Position numbers and translations under genes: made by a program
Assembly: GCF_007748075.1 (NCBI RefSeq)
Contig: NZ_CP036280.1
Span: 1,470,001-1,502,000, forward strand
Reading direction: 5' to 3'
Length of the DNA stretch: 32,000 bases
Origin: Mucisphaera calidilacus
Lineage (GTDB): Bacteria > Planctomycetota > Phycisphaerae > Phycisphaerales > Phycisphaeraceae
Shown: one piece after another, positions 44-9,973 of the stretch
How positions within the stretch are numbered: the stretch's first letter is position 1
How the letters are laid out: each line of letters begins with the position of its first letter
The notes under the pieces: model-generated
Told to the model about the DNA's origin: nothing
Databases searched by the model: none
The model's input: only the letters and a program-made list of their open reading frames with translations

Positions 44-1411
44 ATGACCGCAGCCGCCAAACCCGAATTCAACTGGGAACAGCAGCCCGCCGCCCAAGCC
101 GTCGTCGACCGCCTCATCAAGGAAGCCGTCGCCCTCAGCCCCTCCGCCGAGAAAATGGGCAAGGGGATGTCCGAGCAGGCCGGCACGCGTCTGCTCGACT
201 GGCTCGACCACATCGCAGCCCCCTCAAACGCCGTCTCCGAGTCCGAACTCAAAGAGGTCGGCTTCGAACTCGTCGGGCAGACGCCCCACGGCAAACCGGT
301 CTACGAGCACCTCGGCGCCATCTTCCCCCGCGTGATCGTCAACACCGAAGCCCTGGGCCTCGCCCTCAAGGCCGACTCCGTCTCCGACTACCTCGCCACC
401 CACGGCATCGCCGCGGAAATCCATGGCCAGCCCCTCGCACGACTGCGCTCCGCACGCGTGGACCGCGACGAGAAAGCACAACTCTGGGTCATCGAACGAC
501 ACGGCTGGACCAGCTTCGAGCCGCCCGCCTACGACGCCGAACAGGCCCTCCGTTCTCTTGATCACCTCGACAGCTTCCGCACCCGAAACCGCTGGCACGA
601 CAACGACGTCGCCGGCTTCGAACACGCCTACCAGCTCATCGAACGCGTCGCCGACGACCTCGGCGAAGACTGGGCCTGCGACCTCTTCTTCGAAGCAGAA
701 CGCCAGTACTGGATGCGCCGCAACCGCGCCGCACGCGTTCAAAAAGCCCGCCAGGACAAACTCGGCCTCGGCTGGGCCAACCACGACCACCACACCTTCC
801 GCTCGGGACGTGAGGCCTACAAATACCTCATCAAGGCCCTGGAACTCATGGGCTTCTTCTGCCGCGAACGCTTCTACGCCGGAGCACAGGCCGGATGGGG
901 CGCCCAGGTCCTCGAACACAAGACAACCCGCATCACCATCTTCGCCGACGTCGACATGTCACCCGAAGAAGTCGAGGGCGATTTCGCGCACAACGGCCTG
1001 CCGGCTGCGGAAAAACTCGGCACCGTCGGCCTCTGGACCGCTCTGCACGGCGAATCCTTCCTCCAGGCCGGACTGCATCACCTCGAATGCCAGTTCGATT
1101 TCGACGGCCTCCGCGAGCAGATGAAGGCCGAAGCCGGCATCGGCATGATGGACCCCTTCAGCAACTTCGATCACCTCAAGCAGCAATTCACCGAAGGCGA
1201 ACGCTGGGCCGTCGATGCCGGTCGTATCAGTCGCCTCGTCGAGGCGGGGATGATCACCGAAGATCAAGGCGGCCAGTTCAGCACTCAGGGCGCCATCGGC
1301 TCCCACCTCGAAAACCTCGAACGCAACAACGGCTTCAAGGGCTTCAACCAGACAGGCATCAGCCACATCATCGCCAAGACCGATCCCCGTGAGCACCTGG
1401 CCAAGGCCTGA
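44..1411 (+). CDS. Conserved hypothetical protein, possibly a DUF1338/VOC-like metalloenzyme (function uncertain)
   Basis: Long ORF (track 8..1411) with strong C/G third-position bias. In-frame ATG at 44 is preceded by GAGGAG at 31-36, so it is preferred over ATG at 8. His-rich motifs (NHDHHTFRS, LHHLECQFDF) only loosely resemble the HglS/YdcJ family; no firm family match by eye. Confidence 0.7.
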   Translation: MTAAAKPEFNWEQQPAAQAVVDRLIKEAVALSPSAEKMGKGMSEQAGTRLLDWLDHIAAPSNAVSESELKEVGFELVGQTPHGKPVYEHLGAIFPRVIVNTEALGLALKADSVSDYLATHGIAAEIHGQPLARLRSARVDRDEKAQLWVIERHGWTSFEPPAYDAEQALRSLDHLDSFRTRNRWHDNDVAGFEHAYQLIERVADDLGEDWACDLFFEAERQYWMRRNRAARVQKARQDKLGLGWANHDHHTFRSGREAYKYLIKALELMGFFCRERFYAGAQAGWGAQVLEHKTTRITIFADVDMSPEEVEGDFAHNGLPAAEKLGTVGLWTALHGESFLQAGLHHLECQFDFDGLREQMKAEAGIGMMDPFSNFDHLKQQFTEGERWAVDAGRISRLVEAGMITEDQGGQFSTQGAIGSHLENLERNNGFKGFNQTGISHIIAKTDPREHLAKA

Positions 1412-1811
1412 ACAAACGCTTTTTACCTCTCTTGCCCCAATTAACGGAGATTTGCGCCGATGTCCGTCGCAGACCGAATTTCTAGGTGAACTTATGGTCT
1501 TAAAAGTCGAATCCTGTTGACACACCGCCCGTGATCGATCACTATTCTTTCAGAACGCTGAGGGCAGTCAACCCAACCAGCAGCGAACAAGAAAGAACGG
1601 CTCTGCGTCACTGACTTCTGTTTAATCAAGCATCGCACCGACGACCCCGGCCGAAGACCGGCACGCAGGGCTCGGAGAGAGAGAAAGCATGTTCACCCCC
1701 GATTCCATCTCCAGCAATTTGACAGGCACAAGCCTGGTAAATTGGGAAATGTCGAATCCGGACTTTTCGATCCTCAATCTCCAGGAAAATGAAGTAACCG
1801 ATAACTAACGC

Positions 1812-1839
1812 TTGCAGCCACCAACGTTTGGTGTATGCT
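1812..1839 (+). promoter_or_regulatory. Candidate sigma70-like promoter for paralogue P1 (TTGCAG-16-TATGCT)
   Basis: TTGCAG at 1812-1817 and TATGCT at 1834-1839 with a 16-nt spacer, about 50 nt upstream of ATG 1892. The spacer contains the imperfect palindrome CACCAA-CGT-TTGGTG. Promoter rules for this lineage are uncertain. Confidence 0.3.
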
Positions 1840-1891
1840 TCAGCACTCTCGCACACCCTTTTCCGCTTTTTCTTCGAAGGAGAAAACTGAG

Positions 1892-2443
1892 ATGTTCAAG
1901 ACCGCTACTGCTCTTACCGTTGCTCTCGCCGCTTCCACCGCTATGGCTGAAGTGACCGTCGACAAGGCCCCCAACGCCAGCCTCGCCGGCTACACCACCT
2001 ACACCGTGACCGTCACCGGTGCTGACCTCGGCTTCAACGCCGCGACCATCACCCTCGACGCCCCCGCCGGCCTCAACCAGTCCGAAGCTTTTGGTCAGAT
2101 CGGCCTCTTCGCCGACGACGGCCTCTTCGCCTTCGTTCCCTCGACGGTCATCGAAGACACCTACTTCCTCTTCAACCGTCCGGCCCTTCTGGTTGACGGC
2201 TCCTTCGGCGAGTCGGCCACCGGCCTCGAGGCTTCCTTCGCCTACGCCGATCCCATCGCTGCTGACTTCGCCGCGATGCAGGTCGTGATCGAAGACTCCG
2301 CCACCGAAGCTTGGGTCAAGATTGACCTCGCCTACCCCGGCGGCACCGAGATCATCACGGTCTTCAACGAGAACATCATCCCCACCCCCGCCACCGGCGC
2401 CCTCTTCGGCCTCGCCGGCCTGGCCGCCTTCCGTCGTCGCTAA
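1892..2443 (+). CDS. Small secreted PEP-CTERM-anchored protein, paralogue P1 (183 aa)
   Basis: ATG at 1892 preceded by AAGGAG. Signal peptide MFKTATALTVALAASTAMA/E. C-terminal IPTPATGALFGLAGLAAFRRR is a P-x-P motif plus hydrophobic helix plus Arg cluster, i.e. PEP-CTERM type. The track ORF 1835..2443 was trimmed to the internal start shared with the paralogues. Confidence 0.9.
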   Translation: MFKTATALTVALAASTAMAEVTVDKAPNASLAGYTTYTVTVTGADLGFNAATITLDAPAGLNQSEAFGQIGLFADDGLFAFVPSTVIEDTYFLFNRPALLVDGSFGESATGLEASFAYADPIAADFAAMQVVIEDSATEAWVKIDLAYPGGTEIITVFNENIIPTPATGALFGLAGLAAFRRR

Positions 2444-2491
2444 GCGACCCGGAACACTCGTTCTGACCGAGTACAACATCTGATCTTGAGG

Positions 2492-2524
2492 CAGACCCAC
2501 CAAACGGTGGGTCTGTTTCTTTTT
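2492..2524 (+). terminator. Rho-independent terminator after P1
   Basis: Perfect 10-bp stem CAGACCCACC / GGTGGGTCTG with loop AAAC, followed by TTTCTTTTT. Confidence 0.85.
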
Positions 2525-2556
2525 GTGCGAATTACCCTCTATCTGCCCATTCGGAC

Positions 2557-2584
2557 TTGTTCCGGCCTCACGGATGAGTAGAAT
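2557..2584 (+). promoter_or_regulatory. Candidate sigma70-like promoter for paralogue P2 (TTGTTC-16-TAGAAT)
   Basis: TTGTTC at 2557-2562 and TAGAAT at 2579-2584 with a 16-nt spacer, in the AT-richer spacer upstream of ATG 2719. A perfect 10-bp palindrome GACACGTGTC lies at 2639-2648 in the putative leader. Confidence 0.3.
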
Positions 2585-2718
2585 TAGATTAGGTACGGTT
2601 CCTGTATCAGTACTCCGTGCCTTCAGGGTTTTCGCCGAGACACGTGTCACGGTCCCTGGTCATCTGTTATGTGTATTGGCAAGGCCTTGTTTCACAGCAA
2701 TCCCAAAGGAGAATAGAG

Positions 2719-3273
2719 ATGTTCAAGACTGCTGCCGCTCTTACCGTTGCTCTCGCCGCTTCCACCGCCATGGCTCAGGTTGAGGTCTTCTCGGCCCCCA
2801 ACGCCAATCTCGCCGGCTACACCACCTACACCGTCGCCATCGTCGGGCCGAACGATCTCGGCTTCAACGCCGCGACCGTCACCCTCGACGCCCCCGCCGG
2901 CCTCAACCAGTCCGAAGCTTTCGGTCAGATCGGCCTCTTCGCCGACGACGGCCTCTTCGCCTTCGTTCCCTCGACGGTCATCGAAGACACCTACTTCCTC
3001 TTCAACCGTCCGGCCCTCTTGGTTGACGGCTCCTTCGGCGAGTCGGCCACCGGCCTCGAGGCTTCCTTCGCCTACGCCGACCCCATCGTCGGTGCCTACA
3101 ACGTCATGCAGGTCGTGATCGAAGACTCCGCCACCGAAGCCTGGGTCAAGATTGACCTCGCCTACCCCGGCGGCACCGAGATCATCACGGTCTTCAACGA
3201 GAACATCATCCCCACCCCCGCCACCGGCGCCCTCTTCGGCCTCGCCGGCCTGGCCGCCTTCCGTCGTCGCTAA
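2719..3273 (+). CDS. Small secreted PEP-CTERM-anchored protein, paralogue P2 (184 aa)
   Basis: ATG at 2719 preceded by AAGGAG. Near-identical to P1 except for two short patches. Same signal peptide and the same IPTPATGALFGLAGLAAFRRR tail. Confidence 0.9.
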   Translation: MFKTAAALTVALAASTAMAQVEVFSAPNANLAGYTTYTVAIVGPNDLGFNAATVTLDAPAGLNQSEAFGQIGLFADDGLFAFVPSTVIEDTYFLFNRPALLVDGSFGESATGLEASFAYADPIVGAYNVMQVVIEDSATEAWVKIDLAYPGGTEIITVFNENIIPTPATGALFGLAGLAAFRRR

Positions 3274-3321
3274 GCGACCCGGAACACTCGTTCTGACCGA
3301 GTACAACATCTGATCTTGAGG

Positions 3322-3354
3322 CAGACCCACCAAACGGTGGGTCTGTTTCTTTTT
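3322..3354 (+). terminator. Rho-independent terminator after P2 (exact copy of the P1 terminator)
   Basis: Same CAGACCCACC-AAAC-GGTGGGTCTG hairpin plus T-run, lying within the 247-nt block 3111-3357 that matches 2281-2527 with 1 mismatch. Confidence 0.85.
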
Positions 3355-3386
3355 GTGTTAAAACCGTTTCAGGCTCTGCTTGATGC

Positions 3387-3414
3387 TTGTGTCGGCTCCA
3401 TGCGCAGGTACACT
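3387..3414 (+). promoter_or_regulatory. Weak candidate promoter for the stump-P3-P4-P5 transcription unit (TTGTGT-16-TACACT)
   Basis: Hexamers at 3387-3392 and 3409-3414 with a 16-nt spacer. Only a moderate match to consensus. Confidence 0.2.
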
Positions 3415-3436
3415 AAATAAACGATCTGGGGATCTT

Positions 3437-3505
3437 GTGATGATTGAACCCGCATCCGGCGCCCTCCTCGGCCTCGCCGGCCTGACCCTCCTGCGTCGAC
3501 GTTAA
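3437..3505 (+). pseudogene. 5'-truncated remnant of a paralogue, retaining only the PEP-CTERM tail
   Basis: Reads (V)MIEPASGALLGLAGLTLLRRR-stop. It is followed by the same spacer (GAACCC..CTTTGGAGAAACACC-ATG) that separates P3/P4/P5. No signal peptide or core domain lies upstream. Confidence 0.75.
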
Positions 3506-3532
3506 GAACCCTAGCTTCTTTGGAGAAACACC

Positions 3533-4111
3533 ATGTTTAAAACCACCGCCGCCGCCCTCACCGTTGCTTGCTGCCTGACCTCAGCAGAGGCTGAGTACAC
3601 ACACCCGGATGTGGTCCAGCAATGGATGCCCGCACCCACACTGCCCGGCTACATCACCTACACCGCCTACCTCAGGGGCAGTCTACTCGGCTTCAACGCT
3701 GCCACGATCACAATTCAGGACGAGGCGGGTGTTATGAATCAGGTCGAAGCCTTCGGTCAGAAGGGCCTTTTCGCCGATGACGGCATCTTCGCCTTCGTCC
3801 CCTCGACGGTCATCGAAGACACCTACTTCCTGTTCGACCGTCCGGCGTTGTTGGTTGACGGCTCCTTCGGCGAGTACGCCACCGGCATGGAGGCCTCCTT
3901 CGCCTACGCCGAGCCCGTCACCACGGAGTTCGGCGTGATCCAGATCCTGGTCGCCTACGATGCCACGCAGATACCCTGGATGACCATCGAACTCGCCTAC
4001 CCCGGCGGCTCCGAGATCGTCACTGCCTACGACGCTCCGATCGGGAGGCCCGAGCCCGCCTCCGGCGCCCTCTTCGGCGTCGCCGGCCTGGCCCTCCTGC
4101 GTCGACGTTAA
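3533..4111 (+). CDS. Small secreted PEP-CTERM-anchored protein, paralogue P3 (192 aa)
   Basis: ATG preceded by GGAG. Signal peptide MFKTTAAALTVACCLTSAEA/E. Conserved core GLFADDGIFAFVPSTVIEDTYFLFDRPALLVDGSFGE. Tail RPEPASGALFGVAGLALLRRR. Confidence 0.9.
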   Translation: MFKTTAAALTVACCLTSAEAEYTHPDVVQQWMPAPTLPGYITYTAYLRGSLLGFNAATITIQDEAGVMNQVEAFGQKGLFADDGIFAFVPSTVIEDTYFLFDRPALLVDGSFGEYATGMEASFAYAEPVTTEFGVIQILVAYDATQIPWMTIELAYPGGSEIVTAYDAPIGRPEPASGALFGVAGLALLRRR

Positions 4112-4139
4112 GAACCCCCAACCTCTTTGGAGAAACACC

Positions 4140-4721
4140 ATGCTTAAAACCACCGCCGCCGCCCTTGCCGTTGTTTGCTGCCTGACCTCAGCAGAGGCTG
4201 AGTACACACACCCGGATGTGGTCCAGCAATGGATGCCCGCACCCACACTGCCCGGCTACATCACCTACACCGCCTACCTCAGGGGCAGTCTACTCGGCTT
4301 CAACGCTGCCACGATCACAATTCAGGACGAGGCGGGTGTTATGAATCAGGTCGAAGCCTTCGGTCAGAAGGGCCTTTTCGCCGATGACGGCATCTTCGCC
4401 TTCGTCCCCTCGACGGTCATCGAAGACACCTACTTCCTGTTCGACCGTCCGGCGTTGTTGGTTGACGGCTCCTTCGGCGAGTCCGCCACCGGCATCGAAG
4501 CCTCCTTCGCCTACGCCGACCCCGTCACCACCGACTTCGACGTGATCCAGATCGTACTCAGCGACATCAATACGTTCCCCGCCCCCTGGATGACCATCGA
4601 ACTCGCCTACCCCGGCGGCACCGAGATCATTACCGCGTTTGACGCCCCGCTCTGGGTCCCCACACCCGCCTCCGGCGCCCTCTTCGGCCTCGCCGGCCTG
4701 GCCCTCCTGCGTCGACGTTAA
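4140..4721 (+). CDS. Small secreted PEP-CTERM-anchored protein, paralogue P4 (193 aa), chimera of P3 and P5
   Basis: 4175-4482 is identical to P3 3568-3875 (308 nt). 4112-4189 is identical to 4722-4799, and 4440-4682 is identical to P5 5059-5301 (243 nt). Tail VPTPASGALFGLAGLALLRRR. Confidence 0.9.
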   Translation: MLKTTAAALAVVCCLTSAEAEYTHPDVVQQWMPAPTLPGYITYTAYLRGSLLGFNAATITIQDEAGVMNQVEAFGQKGLFADDGIFAFVPSTVIEDTYFLFDRPALLVDGSFGESATGIEASFAYADPVTTDFDVIQIVLSDINTFPAPWMTIELAYPGGTEIITAFDAPLWVPTPASGALFGLAGLALLRRR

Positions 4722-4749
4722 GAACCCCCAACCTCTTTGGAGAAACACC

Positions 4750-5340
4750 ATGCTTAAAACCACCGCCGCCGCCCTTGCCGTTGTTTGCTGCCTGACCTCT
4801 GCGCAGGCCGTCATTATGCATCCCGATGTTGACCTGGGTTCCGTCGAGGACACCCCCAATCTTCCCGGCTACACCACCGCGACCTACTACATCACGGGCG
4901 AACTCCTCGGCTTCAACGCCGCCACCATCATCCTCGACGGCACGAATTACCCGGGCGAGTTCAACCAGGTCGAGATGTTCGGTCAGAAGGGCCTCTTCGC
5001 CGACGACGGCCTCTTCGCCTTCGTCCCCACCGCCGCCGCCGAGGACACCTACTTCCTCTTCGACCGTCCGGCGTTGTTGGTTGACGGCTCCTTCGGCGAG
5101 TCCGCCACCGGCATCGAAGCCTCCTTCGCCTACGCCGACCCCGTCACCACCGACTTCGACGTGATCCAGATCGTACTCAGCGACATCAATACGTTCCCCG
5201 CCCCCTGGATGACCATCGAACTCGCCTACCCCGGCGGCACCGAGATCATTACCGCGTTTGACGCCCCGCTCTGGGTCCCCACACCCGCCTCCGGCGCCCT
5301 CCTCGGCGTCGCCGGCCTGGCCTTCCTGCGTCGACGATAA
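4750..5340 (+). CDS. Small secreted PEP-CTERM-anchored protein, paralogue P5 (196 aa)
   Basis: Internal ATG at 4750 of track ORF 4639..5340, with the same spacer/GGAG and leader as P4. Distinct N-terminal variable segment. Tail VPTPASGALLGVAGLAFLRRR. Confidence 0.9.
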   Translation: MLKTTAAALAVVCCLTSAQAVIMHPDVDLGSVEDTPNLPGYTTATYYITGELLGFNAATIILDGTNYPGEFNQVEMFGQKGLFADDGLFAFVPTAAAEDTYFLFDRPALLVDGSFGESATGIEASFAYADPVTTDFDVIQIVLSDINTFPAPWMTIELAYPGGTEIITAFDAPLWVPTPASGALLGVAGLAFLRRR

Positions 5341-5369
5341 GAACAACCGACAACGCACGACGCACCGCG

Positions 5370-5394
5370 AGCCCGCCCGCATGGCGGGCTTTTT
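5370..5394 (+). terminator. Rho-independent terminator after P5
   Basis: AGCCCGCC-CGCAT-GGCGGGCT hairpin followed by a T-run. Confidence 0.8.
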
Positions 5395-5454
5395 CGTGCT
5401 CATTTGGGCTTGCTTCTGACTGGCGGCAGGGGGGTACGGCGTGTCTAATTAGGT

Positions 5455-7179
5455 ATGAAGAACGCCTCGCCAATGAATCGCTCCGGCTTGCCCACCTTAA
5501 CCAGCCTGACACTATGCCTCGCCGGCGTCTCCGCCGTGCAGGCCCTTGAGATCGATGGCGTCCAGAACGCGGCCCTCGATCAGCCGCAGATCAACGCCGC
5601 CATCCGTCTCCCGGGCACCACCCAGCCGGTGACCGGGCTCGCCGAGGACCTGTTCGGCAACATCGTCGAGACCTTCAACATCCAGGCCTTCTACGACACC
5701 GGGGCCTCAGGCGTCCTCATGAGCACCCAGACGGCCGACGCGCTGGGCCTCACCCGAGCCCGGTTCGAGGGACAGGACGTCATCTTCGAAGACGTGGGCG
5801 TGGGCGGCGCCGACGCCTTCAACGTCTCCGAGCCTCTCATGATCGACCTCGCACCCTTCCCCAGCGTGGCGATCGACGACCCCGCGACCTACGACACCGT
5901 CTACACCCAGCGTTTCGGGCCGGTGCGGATGCAGGTCGGGCCGCTCGGCGGGATCAGCAACCCGCTGCTCCAGGGCCTCGACGTCTTCGGCATGCCACTC
6001 TTCGTCGACAAGTCCGTGCACATGGACGTCAGCCCGACGCACGACCTCTCGGGCAACATCAACACACGCGTCTACAACTATGGCAGCCGGGAGGCGGCCG
6101 CGATCCGCACGCAGCGGACGGTGCAGATGAGCTACGGCGACTTCGCCCGCTTCACCCGCGTCCTGCCCGACGGCGCCCAGGCACCGACGCTCCAGGGCAA
6201 CCCCTTCATCGGCCCCGACCCGGTCGCCGTGCTCAACGGCGACGCCGAGACGACCCAGGACGTGCCCGGAATCACCGTCCGCCACAACGGCCTGAGCCAG
6301 ACCGGCAGCTGGCTCTTCGACACCGGCGCAGCGGCATCCATCTTCTCCGAGGCACGAGCCGCAGAACTCGGCATCACCTACGACCCCGACTCCGAAGCGC
6401 CCGTCCTGCTGGTCGATGGCGTCGAAGCACCCAACCAGTTCCAGCTCTCCATCGGCGGCATCGGCGGGACCACGCAGCTCGCGGGCCTCTACCTCGACGA
6501 ACTCATCGTCCCGACCATCGAAGGCGACGGCGCAAACCCCGACGATCCCAAGCACCTCAAGTTCCTCAACGCCCCCGTCCTCGTCGGCGACATCACCGTC
6601 CTCGACCCCGTCACGCAGGAGTCCCTGACACTCGACGGCGTATTCGGCATGAACTTCCTCGCCGCATCGATCTTCATCACCGAGCCGTTCGGCATCGGCG
6701 ACCTGCGCGCCGGCGCTTTCAACGACCTCGTCTTCGATCACCCCACCGGCCAGCTGCGCATGCGCTTCAACCCCGACGTCGCGACCTTCGGCGACGTCAA
6801 CGTCGACGGACTGATCGACGCAGAAGACATCGACCTGCTCTTCGAACTGGAGGGCAACACCGACTACCTGGATTTCGCCGACCTCAACAACAGCGGCGCC
6901 GTGGACAACGCGGACGTGACCCTGCTCGTGACGGACGTCCTCAACACCACAGCAGGCGACGCCAACCTCGACGGACAGGTTGACCTACTCGACTTGTCAT
7001 CCCTTGCCGCATCGTTCGACGGCATCGGAGGCTGGTCTGATGGCGACTTCAACGGCGACCAGTGGGTCAACCTGCTCGACCTGAGCCTGCTCGCCACACA
7101 CTTCGAAACATCCAGTATTCCCGAGCCCGCGAGCCTGTTCATGGTTATGGCGGGGCTGCTACGCAGTTGTCGCCGGTGA
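5455..7179 (+). CDS. Secreted tandem retropepsin-like (double DTGA) aspartic protease with dockerin-like repeats and PEP-CTERM anchor (574 aa)
   Basis: Signal peptide ending AVQA/LE. Half 1: FYDTGASGVLMS..ADALGL (D81, nt 5695), GVGG, GLDVFGMPLF. Half 2: LFDTGAAASIFS..AAELGI (D289, nt 6319), GGIGG, LDGVFGMNFL. Four DxNxDGxxDxxD-type repeats span aa 446-550 (nt 6790-7104). Tail IPEPASLFMVMAGLLRSCRR. Confidence 0.85.
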   Translation: MKNASPMNRSGLPTLTSLTLCLAGVSAVQALEIDGVQNAALDQPQINAAIRLPGTTQPVTGLAEDLFGNIVETFNIQAFYDTGASGVLMSTQTADALGLTRARFEGQDVIFEDVGVGGADAFNVSEPLMIDLAPFPSVAIDDPATYDTVYTQRFGPVRMQVGPLGGISNPLLQGLDVFGMPLFVDKSVHMDVSPTHDLSGNINTRVYNYGSREAAAIRTQRTVQMSYGDFARFTRVLPDGAQAPTLQGNPFIGPDPVAVLNGDAETTQDVPGITVRHNGLSQTGSWLFDTGAAASIFSEARAAELGITYDPDSEAPVLLVDGVEAPNQFQLSIGGIGGTTQLAGLYLDELIVPTIEGDGANPDDPKHLKFLNAPVLVGDITVLDPVTQESLTLDGVFGMNFLAASIFITEPFGIGDLRAGAFNDLVFDHPTGQLRMRFNPDVATFGDVNVDGLIDAEDIDLLFELEGNTDYLDFADLNNSGAVDNADVTLLVTDVLNTTAGDANLDGQVDLLDLSSLAASFDGIGGWSDGDFNGDQWVNLLDLSLLATHFETSSIPEPASLFMVMAGLLRSCRR

Positions 7180-9331: not shown

Positions 9332-9973
9332 TTGGACAACCTCGAGGTACTGGGATTCCCGCTGGGGGCATGGCAGACCAACTGCTACATCCTCGCCACC
9401 GGCTCGACCTGCTGGCTCGTCGACGTCGGCTTCGAGCCCGAAACCATGCTGGACGCCGTCTCAGAGCGAGGCCTCACGCCCGAGCGGATCGTCCTCACCC
9501 ACGCCCACGTGGACCACATCGCCGGCCTCGAACAGGCCCGTGAACGTTTCCCAGGCGTACCGGTGGCGATTCACGAATCAGAAACCGAGTTCCTCCAGCG
9601 CCCCGAACTCAATCTCTCGGCGATGCTCGCGGAACCCATCACCTGCACCGAACCCGAAGAAACCCTCACCCACGGCCAGACGCTCACGCTTGGCGAATGG
9701 CCTTTCGAGGTCCGGCACGTCCCCGGACACTCACCCGGCGGGGTCTGCCTCTACCAGCCCAAATCAAACCTCGCGATCGTCGGCGACACCCTCTTCGCAG
9801 GCTCCATCGGCCGACACGACTTCCCGACCTCCGACGGCCCGCTCCTGCTCCAGTCGATCCGCGAGCAACTGCTGACGCTGCCCGACGAGACGAGCATCCT
9901 CCCCGGACACGGACCCGCATCGACCATCGGCACCGAACGACAGACCAACCCCTTCGTCGGCACGAACCCTTAG
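9332..9973 (+). CDS. MBL-fold metallo-hydrolase (glyoxalase II / YcbL-like)
   Basis: THAHVDHIAG (HxHxDH), HVPGHSPG and GRHDF motifs. The track ORF 8546..9973 has no ATG near the domain start and runs antisense through nuoB. The start is proposed at TTG 9332, preceded by GGAG at 9321-9324, and is uncertain. Confidence 0.75.
   Translation: MDNLEVLGFPLGAWQTNCYILATGSTCWLVDVGFEPETMLDAVSERGLTPERIVLTHAHVDHIAGLEQARERFPGVPVAIHESETEFLQRPELNLSAMLAEPITCTEPEETLTHGQTLTLGEWPFEVRHVPGHSPGGVCLYQPKSNLAIVGDTLFAGSIGRHDFPTSDGPLLLQSIREQLLTLPDETSILPGHGPASTIGTERQTNPFVGTNP

Follow-up and report, generated by a model that had tools for sequence, protein, structure and literature searches.

A recombining tandem array of secreted PEP-CTERM-type proteins in Mucisphaera calidilacus belongs to a dockerin-associated family of Planctomycetota

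A stretch of 32,000 nucleotides (nt) of Mucisphaera calidilacus (contig NZ_CP036280.1, positions 1,470,001 to 1,502,000), referred to here as the window, carries a tandem array of five complete genes (P1 to P5, window positions 1892-5340) and the remnant of a sixth. The genes encode secreted proteins with PEP-CTERM-type tails, have recently multiplied in tandem and recombine with one another; the wider family to which these proteins belong shows a strong genomic association with dockerin modules that is independent of the architecture of the dockerin-bearing partner. The array is probably a lineage-specific tandem expansion of surface or matrix proteins with a beta-sandwich fold, sorted by the PEP-CTERM/exosortase system and coupled to dockerin-tagged exoproteins. 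The tails suggest an exosortase-dependent placement in the envelope or matrix, and the coupling, seen at the level of gene neighbourhoods and domain fusions, may extend to the function of these exoproteins, including the protease encoded next to the array. As an array of PEP-CTERM paralogues the element is ordinary, and the pairing with dockerins is its new part; no paper combining the terms 'dockerin' and 'PEP-CTERM' was found in the literature searched.

Five mosaic genes for small secreted proteins

The five genes lie head to tail on the forward strand and encode proteins of 183-196 amino acids (aa), as an earlier note on this DNA, made from the sequence alone, had described them. P1 (1892-2443, 183 aa) consists of a signal peptide, the family domain and a PTPATG/hydrophobic/RRR tail. 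P2 (2719-3273, 184 aa) is 92% identical to P1 in nucleotides, with the differences grouped in two segments, and P3 (3533-4111, 192 aa) is the sole copy with a canonical PEP motif (RPEPASG). P4 (4140-4721, 193 aa) is a recombinant, its 5' part matching P3 and its 3' part P5, while P5 (4750-5340, 196 aa) has the most divergent N-terminal half among the copies. Every one of the five begins with an ATG behind a ribosome-binding site, encodes both signal peptide and anchor, and ends in a stop codon. The truncated sixth unit, or stump (3438-3505, same strand), which the earlier note had also recorded, is real: it is a 68-nt 3' remnant of a family gene, comprises the sorting tail only (MIEPASGALLGLAGLTLLRRR, then a stop) and is 92-95% identical to the tails of P3 and P4 over 64 nt. 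Upstream of 3448, the stump region shows no homology to the body of the family.

By inspection, the N-termini of P1 to P5 are Sec-type signal peptides (for example, MFKTATALTVALAASTAMA before E and MLKTTAAALAVVCCLTSAEA before E), in which a basic n-region leads into a hydrophobic core and then an AXA site (AMA before E, AEA before E, AQA before V). The C-termini of the five proteins and of the stump consist of P-[TE]-P-A-[ST]-G, 11-12 hydrophobic residues and RRR. This combination of signal peptide and tail had been claimed for every gene and was seen in all five. With the PEP-CTERM model TIGR02595 (cut-off 16 bits), P3 scores 16.3 bits and P1 12.2 bits, and P5 has no match; with PF07589 (cut-off 20.7 bits), the window proteins score 10-16 bits. 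Distant members of the family clear the PEP-CTERM thresholds, at 27.1 and 26.2 bits. The 'CC' in the signal peptides of P3 to P5 raises a lipoprotein reading, which was ruled out by inspection, no lipobox being present.

PEP-CTERM proteins show lineage-specific expansion of paralogues with few recognisable domains, have tails that are more alike within than between genomes, occur as single-gene units with long upstream regions, and are linked to the production of exopolysaccharide (Haft et al. 2006, PMC1569441). The array resembles PEP-CTERM paralogue families (NCBIfam subfamilies such as THxN, QFxxD, FxDxF and EDSAP-1) in its signal peptides and in the C-terminal arrangement of PEP-type motif, transmembrane helix and arginine cluster. 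Also shared are an unrecognised N-terminal domain, within-genome similarity, lineage-specific expansion and a matrix-producing organism, and P1 and P2 are likewise single-gene units behind long intergenic regions. In contrast, no subfamily model fits the core of the array proteins: the best, flocculation-associated PepA (floc_PepA, NF033554), scores 16.8 bits against a cut-off of 80, and its match is limited to the signal-peptide/N-terminal region. The array further differs in the PTP of four of its five tails, in its operon-like run of three copies, and in its consistent dockerin-bearing neighbour.

Sequence differences between the copies are clustered. P1 and P2 differ at 43 of 552 nt, nearly all of them in alignment nt 1-180 and 361-450. 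Core and tails had been described as conserved almost to the nucleotide, which holds within P1/P2 and within P3-P5 but not between these subgroups, where the core is about 90% identical. Likewise, the clustering of differences in two segments is confirmed, with the addition that signal peptide and last beta-strand region (alignment nt 481-540) also set the subgroups apart.

Exact tracts on the forward strand join pairs of copies. P3 and P4 share 308 nt (3568-3875 = 4175-4482), P4 and P5 share 243 nt (4440-4682 = 5059-5301), and P1 and P2 share 216 nt comprising the final quarter of the gene and the sequence up to and including the terminator (2312-2527 = 3142-3357). A 110-nt junction tract comprising the P3 tail, the spacer and the P4 head recurs as the P4 tail, spacer and P5 head (4080-4189 = 4690-4799). 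The same pairs diverge by 25-55% outside the exact tracts. In the P3/P4/P5 triplet, the 129 informative sites run CCCC, then 81 A, 41 C and A.AA; the maximum chi-squared statistic of 99.9 was equalled in none of 10,000 permutations (p<1e-4), and a test of the pairwise homoplasy index (PHI) type on all five genes gave p<5e-4. The copies are thus mosaic paralogues, as the earlier note had proposed. The pattern of tracts and the breakpoint statistic together indicate that P4 is recombinant: the body of its 5' half derives from P3, its 3' half from P5. An origin by one unequal crossover of a P3-like with a P5-like gene was rejected, as it predicts a middle hybrid with a 5' part from P5 and a 3' part from P3, the opposite of what is observed. 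Gene conversion, or several events, would be the simpler account.

A family across Planctomycetota with dockerin-bearing neighbours

The domain between signal peptide and tail had been put forward as unassignable to any known family, and the searches agree. No Pfam or NCBIfam match to the core was found in P1-P5, in 10 distant relatives or in the 45 members of the family alignment (A3), and PDB sequences gave no meaningful match to the family profiles (A1, A3). The alignment A3 consists of 45 homologous domains, and its profile hidden Markov model (HMM) scores P1 at 2e-40. When 1.84 billion representatives were searched exhaustively with a profile, 206 matched; among the top 150 of these, about 82 carry the core. 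Around half of the listed matches were dockerin-only, reflecting dockerin and tail columns contributed to the profile by the relative P0007, and these were removed by a core-only HMM. A second search gave 77 clusters, and clustered at 50% identity the family overall comprises about 80 groups. With full-length sequences (A2), a word-index search was swamped by words from signal peptides and PEP-CTERM tails and yielded only 12 matches.

Named sources of family members include Botrimarina colliarenosi and Pirellulimonas nuda (Planctomycetia) and metagenome-assembled genomes (MAGs) of Phycisphaeraceae, so that the family ranges over Planctomycetia and Phycisphaerae. The domain is not peculiar to M. 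calidilacus, being that of a family found across Planctomycetota. Its consensus reads S.PT.GL.GYTTYT ... GPMNQVNP.G.PTIF.D.N.F ... QDSQFLF ... ES.T.L.A.F ... AQ.V.PD, followed by a clear PEP-CTERM. Members occur as single-domain proteins of about 190 aa, as tandem genes (loci L007, L008, L012 and L020, and several gene calls that span two genes), as true two-domain proteins and as dockerin fusions. Three 'two-domain' database entries (P0015, P0021 and P0067) carry a PEP-CTERM tail in their interior and a second signal peptide behind it. They probably represent tandem pairs that gene callers merged, which adds to the evidence that tandem arrays of this family are common. On an unrelated marine contig (L007), the two domains of a tandem pair (2523-3101 and 3625-4200) are 61% identical and the 24-aa PEP-CTERM tail is identical (IPEPAALALMSIALVGLGFFRRSK), indicating the same homogenisation of tails as in the array.

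In the window, the dockerin-bearing neighbour of the array is a secreted aspartic protease of 574 aa (5455-7179, forward strand) with two retropepsin-like lobes (DTG in each). It matches Asp_protease_2 at 6.5e-12 and Dockerin_1 at 32.7 bits (cut-off 22.9), and has a sub-threshold PEP-CTERM score of 14.8 bits. The protein is a single chain with DTGA in each lobe, two dockerin-like repeat pairs and a PEP-CTERM-like tail. Its dockerin lies at about residues 476-553.

The neighbourhoods of family genes were surveyed by a six-frame scan of 24 metagenome loci, eight loci from exact look-ups, the MAG loci and the window, using the family HMM together with an ad hoc dockerin HMM and a regular expression. 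A dockerin open reading frame (ORF) adjoined or was fused to the family gene in about 25 of the 29 loci with enough flanking sequence. The dockerin ORF usually lies immediately upstream of the family gene, on the same strand and with its end 100-400 nt ahead of that gene. Among the dockerin ORFs of loci of at least 7.5 kb, 13 of 16 were adjacent or fused, against 2.9 expected. Most dockerin partners pass the PEP-CTERM threshold. Their N-terminal parts vary, including an aspartic protease, a 601-aa protein, pentapeptide repeats, the 'MSWKS' family, a 467-aa protein and others. The only constant feature across at least five unrelated partner architectures is the dockerin. The earlier note had envisaged an envelope module of the array with the aspartic protease; the linkage is indeed kept in a sister genome (see below), but the partner that the family keeps throughout is the dockerin, not the protease. 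No canonical cohesin was detected in any examined family-gene neighbourhood.

The 'MSWKS...' proteins are 250-360 aa long and combine a signal peptide and an N-terminal domain (...NPGNNPFT.. or ...IFAALGS...) with a dockerin pair and a PEP-CTERM tail. An ORF of this type lies directly upstream of the family gene in L005, L007-L009, L011, L013, L018, L019, L023-L026, L029 and L030, where the two form a conserved two-gene cassette. The N-terminal domain of the MSWKS proteins has no Pfam match. Two further loci encode beta-rich N-terminal domains that look cohesin-like by eye (L010 7335-8720, ATIDVGN...GQEIEVYVTGG...; L004 3924-4775, TVTIDVGDD...GQSIPLYATT...), although neither has a Pfam Cohesin match. 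In L010, one such beta-rich domain is fused to the family domain and a dockerin-like segment.

Fold of the domain and the question of docking

An AlphaFold2 model built from the 45-sequence alignment predicts an all-beta sandwich of about nine strands, with a mean predicted local distance difference test score (pLDDT) of 84.6 and a predicted template modelling score (pTM) of 0.80. It supersedes an earlier AlphaFold model from 7 sequences (pLDDT 66). The most conserved stretch, at about mature residues 56-97, is loop-rich and has the lowest model confidence. Residues that are invariant or nearly so in the family are polar or glycine (D76, E94, Q50, G19, G55 and T22). Foldseek searches of the PDB with the model gave weak matches (E 5e-4 to 3e-2, template modelling (TM) score 0.43-0.49, root-mean-square deviation (rmsd) about 9 Å). 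The best of these were adhesin domains of Als, zonadhesin and staphylococcal MSCRAMM proteins, and cohesins of types I, II and III were recurrent. The model of pLDDT 66 gave the same picture, with carbohydrate- and chitin-binding modules among its weak matches. On the predicted structure, the domain can be placed only as a 'beta-sandwich of the adhesin/cohesin kind', and not in a characterised family.

Immunoglobulin (Ig)-like adhesins (the N-terminal part of Candida Als3, MSCRAMM N2/N3 and Cna) resemble the array proteins in being surface-anchored all-beta sandwiches, with Foldseek E values of 5e-4 to 5e-3. They differ in that TM scores are 0.44-0.49, rmsd is about 9-10 Å, identity is 9-13%, and the anchoring chemistry is another one. 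The likeness to cohesin-dockerin systems is of a wider kind. As in those systems, a beta-sandwich of about 140-150 aa, predicted here to be cell-anchored, is encoded beside dockerin proteins or fused with them, and like scaffoldins the family has single, tandem-gene and two-domain forms. A hypothetical 'planctosome', in which canonical cohesins and dockerins display peptidases, has been proposed for freshwater relatives within Phycisphaerae (Andrei et al. 2019, PMC6461901), and the partner of the array is likewise a peptidase. In contrast to cohesins, however, the family has no sequence or profile similarity to them and TM scores stay below 0.5. It also differs from cohesin systems in having a PEP-CTERM anchor instead of SLH or sortase anchoring, and in that the dockerin proteins are themselves anchored.

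The mechanism that would best account for the association is that the domain acts as a cell-bound receptor or co-assembly partner of the Ca2+-binding dockerin, and is thus a functional analogue of cohesin. Five diverged copies would then offer several docking surfaces within the dense matrix of the organism. Direct binding of dockerin by the family domain is nevertheless speculative and is put forward only tentatively. The broader proposal, that the beta-sandwich of about 140 aa ('GYTTYT...NQVNP...QDSQF...ES') is an unrecognised PEP-CTERM-anchored dockerin-binding module, unrelated or very distantly related to cohesin, and the cell-side half of a display system found throughout Planctomycetota, is possible but doubtful. 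What it offers is a concrete candidate docking partner for the phylum's dockerin-tagged exoproteins with their many catalytic and structural heads. Dockerins are reportedly common in Planctomycetota and in many non-cellulolytic bacteria, often without identifiable cohesins, as Peer and colleagues are said to have found in 2009. If the proposal were true, it would explain where the many dockerin-tagged exoproteins of Planctomycetota dock, the five copies would represent recombining docking specificities, and exosortase/PEP-CTERM sorting would be joined with cohesin-dockerin-type docking, two subjects usually studied apart.

Several observations weigh against a dockerin-coupled, exosortase-sorted array and against direct docking. 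Fold matches are weak, and Ig-like folds of adhesins score as well as cohesins do. Pfam Cohesin (PF00963) gave no match at E values up to 1-5 in the window proteins, the 10 distant members or the 45 A3 members, and hhalign of A3 against type I cohesins (1AOH, 3KCP and 2CCL) returned a probability of 0.15%, with a cohesin profile that was shallow. As regards the association itself, the binomial probability for the loci of at least 7.5 kb (8.6e-8) overstates independence, since many of the loci are phylogenetically related. Dockerin calls in the metagenome loci rest mostly on the ad hoc HMM and the regular expression, two of the 25 positive loci were called by eye, and Pfam Dockerin_1 exceeded its cut-off in just four partners, with several more scoring below it. 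The dockerin gene of the window lies downstream of the array and behind a terminator, while elsewhere the dockerin gene is commonly directly upstream. The array proteins and their partner each have their own PEP-CTERM anchor, so that docking is not needed to tether either of them. Lastly, four of the five tails (P1, P2, P4 and P5) read PTP where PEP would be canonical, and their scores do not reach the curated PEP-CTERM thresholds. The PTP(A)(T/S)G variant also occurs in P0009 of the sister genome (L003 7818-8393), and because of this recurrence it is probably functional; it may reflect a variant exosortase specificity.

The main competing explanation is that the products are structural or lectin-like matrix proteins which bind exopolysaccharide or Ca2+ through polar loops (NQ.., F.D.N, [QE]D[ST][QY]F and ES) and cross-link the matrix, their dockerin neighbours being simply co-regulated. 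A dense extracellular matrix surrounds M. calidilacus strain Pan265, whose growth takes the form of a viscous colloid (PMC8882080), and such a role would suit both this growth and the association of PEP-CTERM proteins with exopolysaccharide. It would also suit the polar or glycine nature of the invariant residues, which lie in the loop-rich, lower-confidence part of the model, the carbohydrate- and chitin-binding modules among the weak matches of the first model, and the separate anchors of both partners. However, it leaves unexplained why the neighbours should be specifically dockerin proteins, of at least five unrelated architectures and including fusions, and no family of carbohydrate-binding modules or lectins was recognised by HMM. 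On balance, a purely structural matrix role is considered rather unlikely. Should dockerin binding fail, the domain would still define a new PEP-CTERM family fit for an HMM, its members would be candidates for the matrix proteins behind the unusual gel-like growth of this strain, and the array would be a clean, small case of concerted evolution, its homogenised parts recognisable by low synonymous divergence and its 'variable' parts without signs of positive selection.

Homogenisation rather than diversifying selection

Pairwise Nei-Gojobori estimates of synonymous divergence (dS) and of the ratio of nonsynonymous to synonymous divergence (omega) were made by segment on a codon alignment of P1-P5. 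In the conserved parts, dS is 0-0.05 within the P1/P2 and P3-P5 subgroups. Between P1 and P2 it drops from the N-terminal segment (0.26) and the internal patch (0.25) to the core (0.055), and reaches 0 in the last strands and tail. This fall in dS indicates gene conversion or homogenisation of the conserved parts, and the near-zero values within subgroups bear out the earlier view that scaffold and anchor are homogenised. In the variable segments, dS is 0.25-0.96 and omega 0.47-1.03 across all pairs, never clearly above 1. The variable segments are thus variable because synonymous divergence is high there too, which points to old divergence that escaped homogenisation rather than to localised hypermutation or selection. 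The diversifying selection implied by the earlier note finds no support in these values.

The data show that the five copies arose by tandem duplication of a single gene, for a small Sec-exported protein of predicted beta-sandwich fold, and that they go on trading segments through gene conversion or unequal recombination. The loop-rich conserved core and the last strands, together with tail, spacers and terminators, thereby stay nearly identical, whereas the outer N-terminal strands and one internal patch retain older divergence.

Gene conversion also shapes variable surface-protein families, to which the array had been likened and of which pilE/pilS and opa of Neisseria, vlsE of Borrelia and msp2 of Anaplasma are examples. 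The shared features are segmental mosaics, conserved ends, variable internal segments and one truncated copy. Unlike pilE/pilS, vlsE and msp2, the array has no single expression site, no silent cassettes and no evidence of omega above 1; conversion homogenises it instead of diversifying it, and all copies are apparently expressed genes. The analogy does not hold for five complete genes that lack an expression site with silent cassettes.

A variable surface-antigen system, in which cassettes are shuffled under diversifying selection, for example by phage, predators or grazers, is accordingly improbable. The segmental mosaics with very recent exchange tracts, the localised variable segments, the truncated stump and the tandem arrays of other lineages (L007, L008, L012 and L020) are what such a system would display. 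But the five copies are complete and separately translatable, with no promoterless silent cassettes among them, the stump consists of the invariant tail only, omega stays at 0.47-1.03 with high dS, and the protein search gave no further annotated paralogues from this genome. No suitable inverted repeats or invertible elements flank the array, so phase-variable invertons find no support, and the completeness of every copy together with the lack of invertible elements means that a silent-cassette model of antigenic variation does not fit.

A diversity-generating retroelement was also considered, although it was weakly tested, and finds no support, the patch differences between P1 and P2 spanning all base types. 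No template-like second copy of the variable patches was found in 1400-5600, and no reverse transcriptase among the ORFs scanned, a scan that took in only part of the window ORFs.

The array in a sister genome

Searches of proteins and of genome contigs found close relatives only in one Mucisphaera sp. MAG. The syntenic order in this MAG is a 601-aa dockerin/PEP-CTERM protein, the family gene P0006 (182 aa), an FHA protein, a 574-aa aspartic protease and P0007 (family domain, dockerin and PEP-CTERM), continuing past P0007 with PilZ, LacI and NuoB. P1 is the positional orthologue of P0006, the single MAG copy at the orthologous position. About 80 nt of the P1 leader are conserved upstream of P0006, while the upstream region of P2 is unrelated. 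A palindrome in the P1 leader (CCACCAAC(G/A)(T/G)TTGGTG, window 1823-1845) is kept upstream of the MAG orthologue (L001, about 9920-9945), and could be an operator or an RNA hairpin. P0009, the third MAG copy, is found away from this region, immediately downstream of a 746-aa protein that combines pentapeptide repeats with a dockerin and PEP-CTERM.

Proteins P1 to P5 are 63-91% identical to one another, 39-58% identical to the three MAG copies, and the MAG copies are 53-61% identical among themselves. These identities point to expansion in the species lineage, to homogenisation within the genome, or to both, and not to a static array; the single copy at the orthologous position in the sister genome supports the view of the earlier note, for which a comparison of synteny and copy number had been called for.

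The protease is likewise conserved, its MAG orthologue (L001 11228-12952) having the same context and the same length of 574 aa in both Mucisphaera genomes. This adjacency in both genomes would fit small proteins that serve as substrates, pro-partners or inhibitors of the protease, yet such a role is very improbable: outside Mucisphaera the neighbours are never an aspartic protease but other dockerin proteins (at least 25 other loci), and the third MAG copy itself stands beside the pentapeptide-repeat dockerin protein. Least probable is that the exact tracts are an assembly artefact of collapsed or chimeric tandem repeats, for although tracts of 243-308 nt in a repeat with a period of about 610 nt are of the kind that short-read assemblers can mis-join, the sequence is a single closed 3.49-Mb contig with five intact frames and a consistent three-way pattern, and similar homogenisation of tails occurs on independent metagenome contigs (L007).

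Transcription units and surrounding sequence

All features of the array described here are on the forward strand. The leader and promoter-proximal region of P1 (1810-1891) contains the palindrome CCACCAACGTTTGGTG and the ribosome-binding site AAGGAG. P1 is followed by an intrinsic terminator (2488-2519) with a 14-bp stem and a T-run, which lies inside the 216-nt tract 2312-2527, and P2 by a terminator of the same sequence (3318-3349), the identity of the two having been correctly noted before. A further terminator after P5 (5375-5389) marks the presumed end of the last unit, and none was found when intrinsic terminators were looked for in the interval from the stump to P5.

The conserved 28-nt spacer with GGAG that had been reported between the downstream genes is identical between P3 and P4 (4112-4139) and between P4 and P5 (4722-4749), whereas the spacer between stump and P3 (3506-3532) is a 27-nt variant that also contains GGAG. 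From the positions of the terminators and the short GGAG spacers, three transcription units are predicted: P1, P2, and the run stump-P3-P4-P5.

Upstream of the array, an ORF of 467 aa (8-1411) occupies the position held in the MAG by the 601-aa dockerin/PEP-CTERM protein; it lacks a signal peptide, and neither Pfam nor NCBIfam gave a significant match. Housekeeping genes account for the large ORFs that were scanned, a part of those in the window, and no Rfam family reached threshold anywhere in the window. The guanine-plus-cytosine (GC) content of the array is 0.60-0.63, within the window range of 0.56-0.67. GC skew is negative in all 1-kb bins of the window (1-32000; -0.06 to -0.28) although most long ORFs are on the forward strand, which indicates that the coding strand is strongly C-rich.

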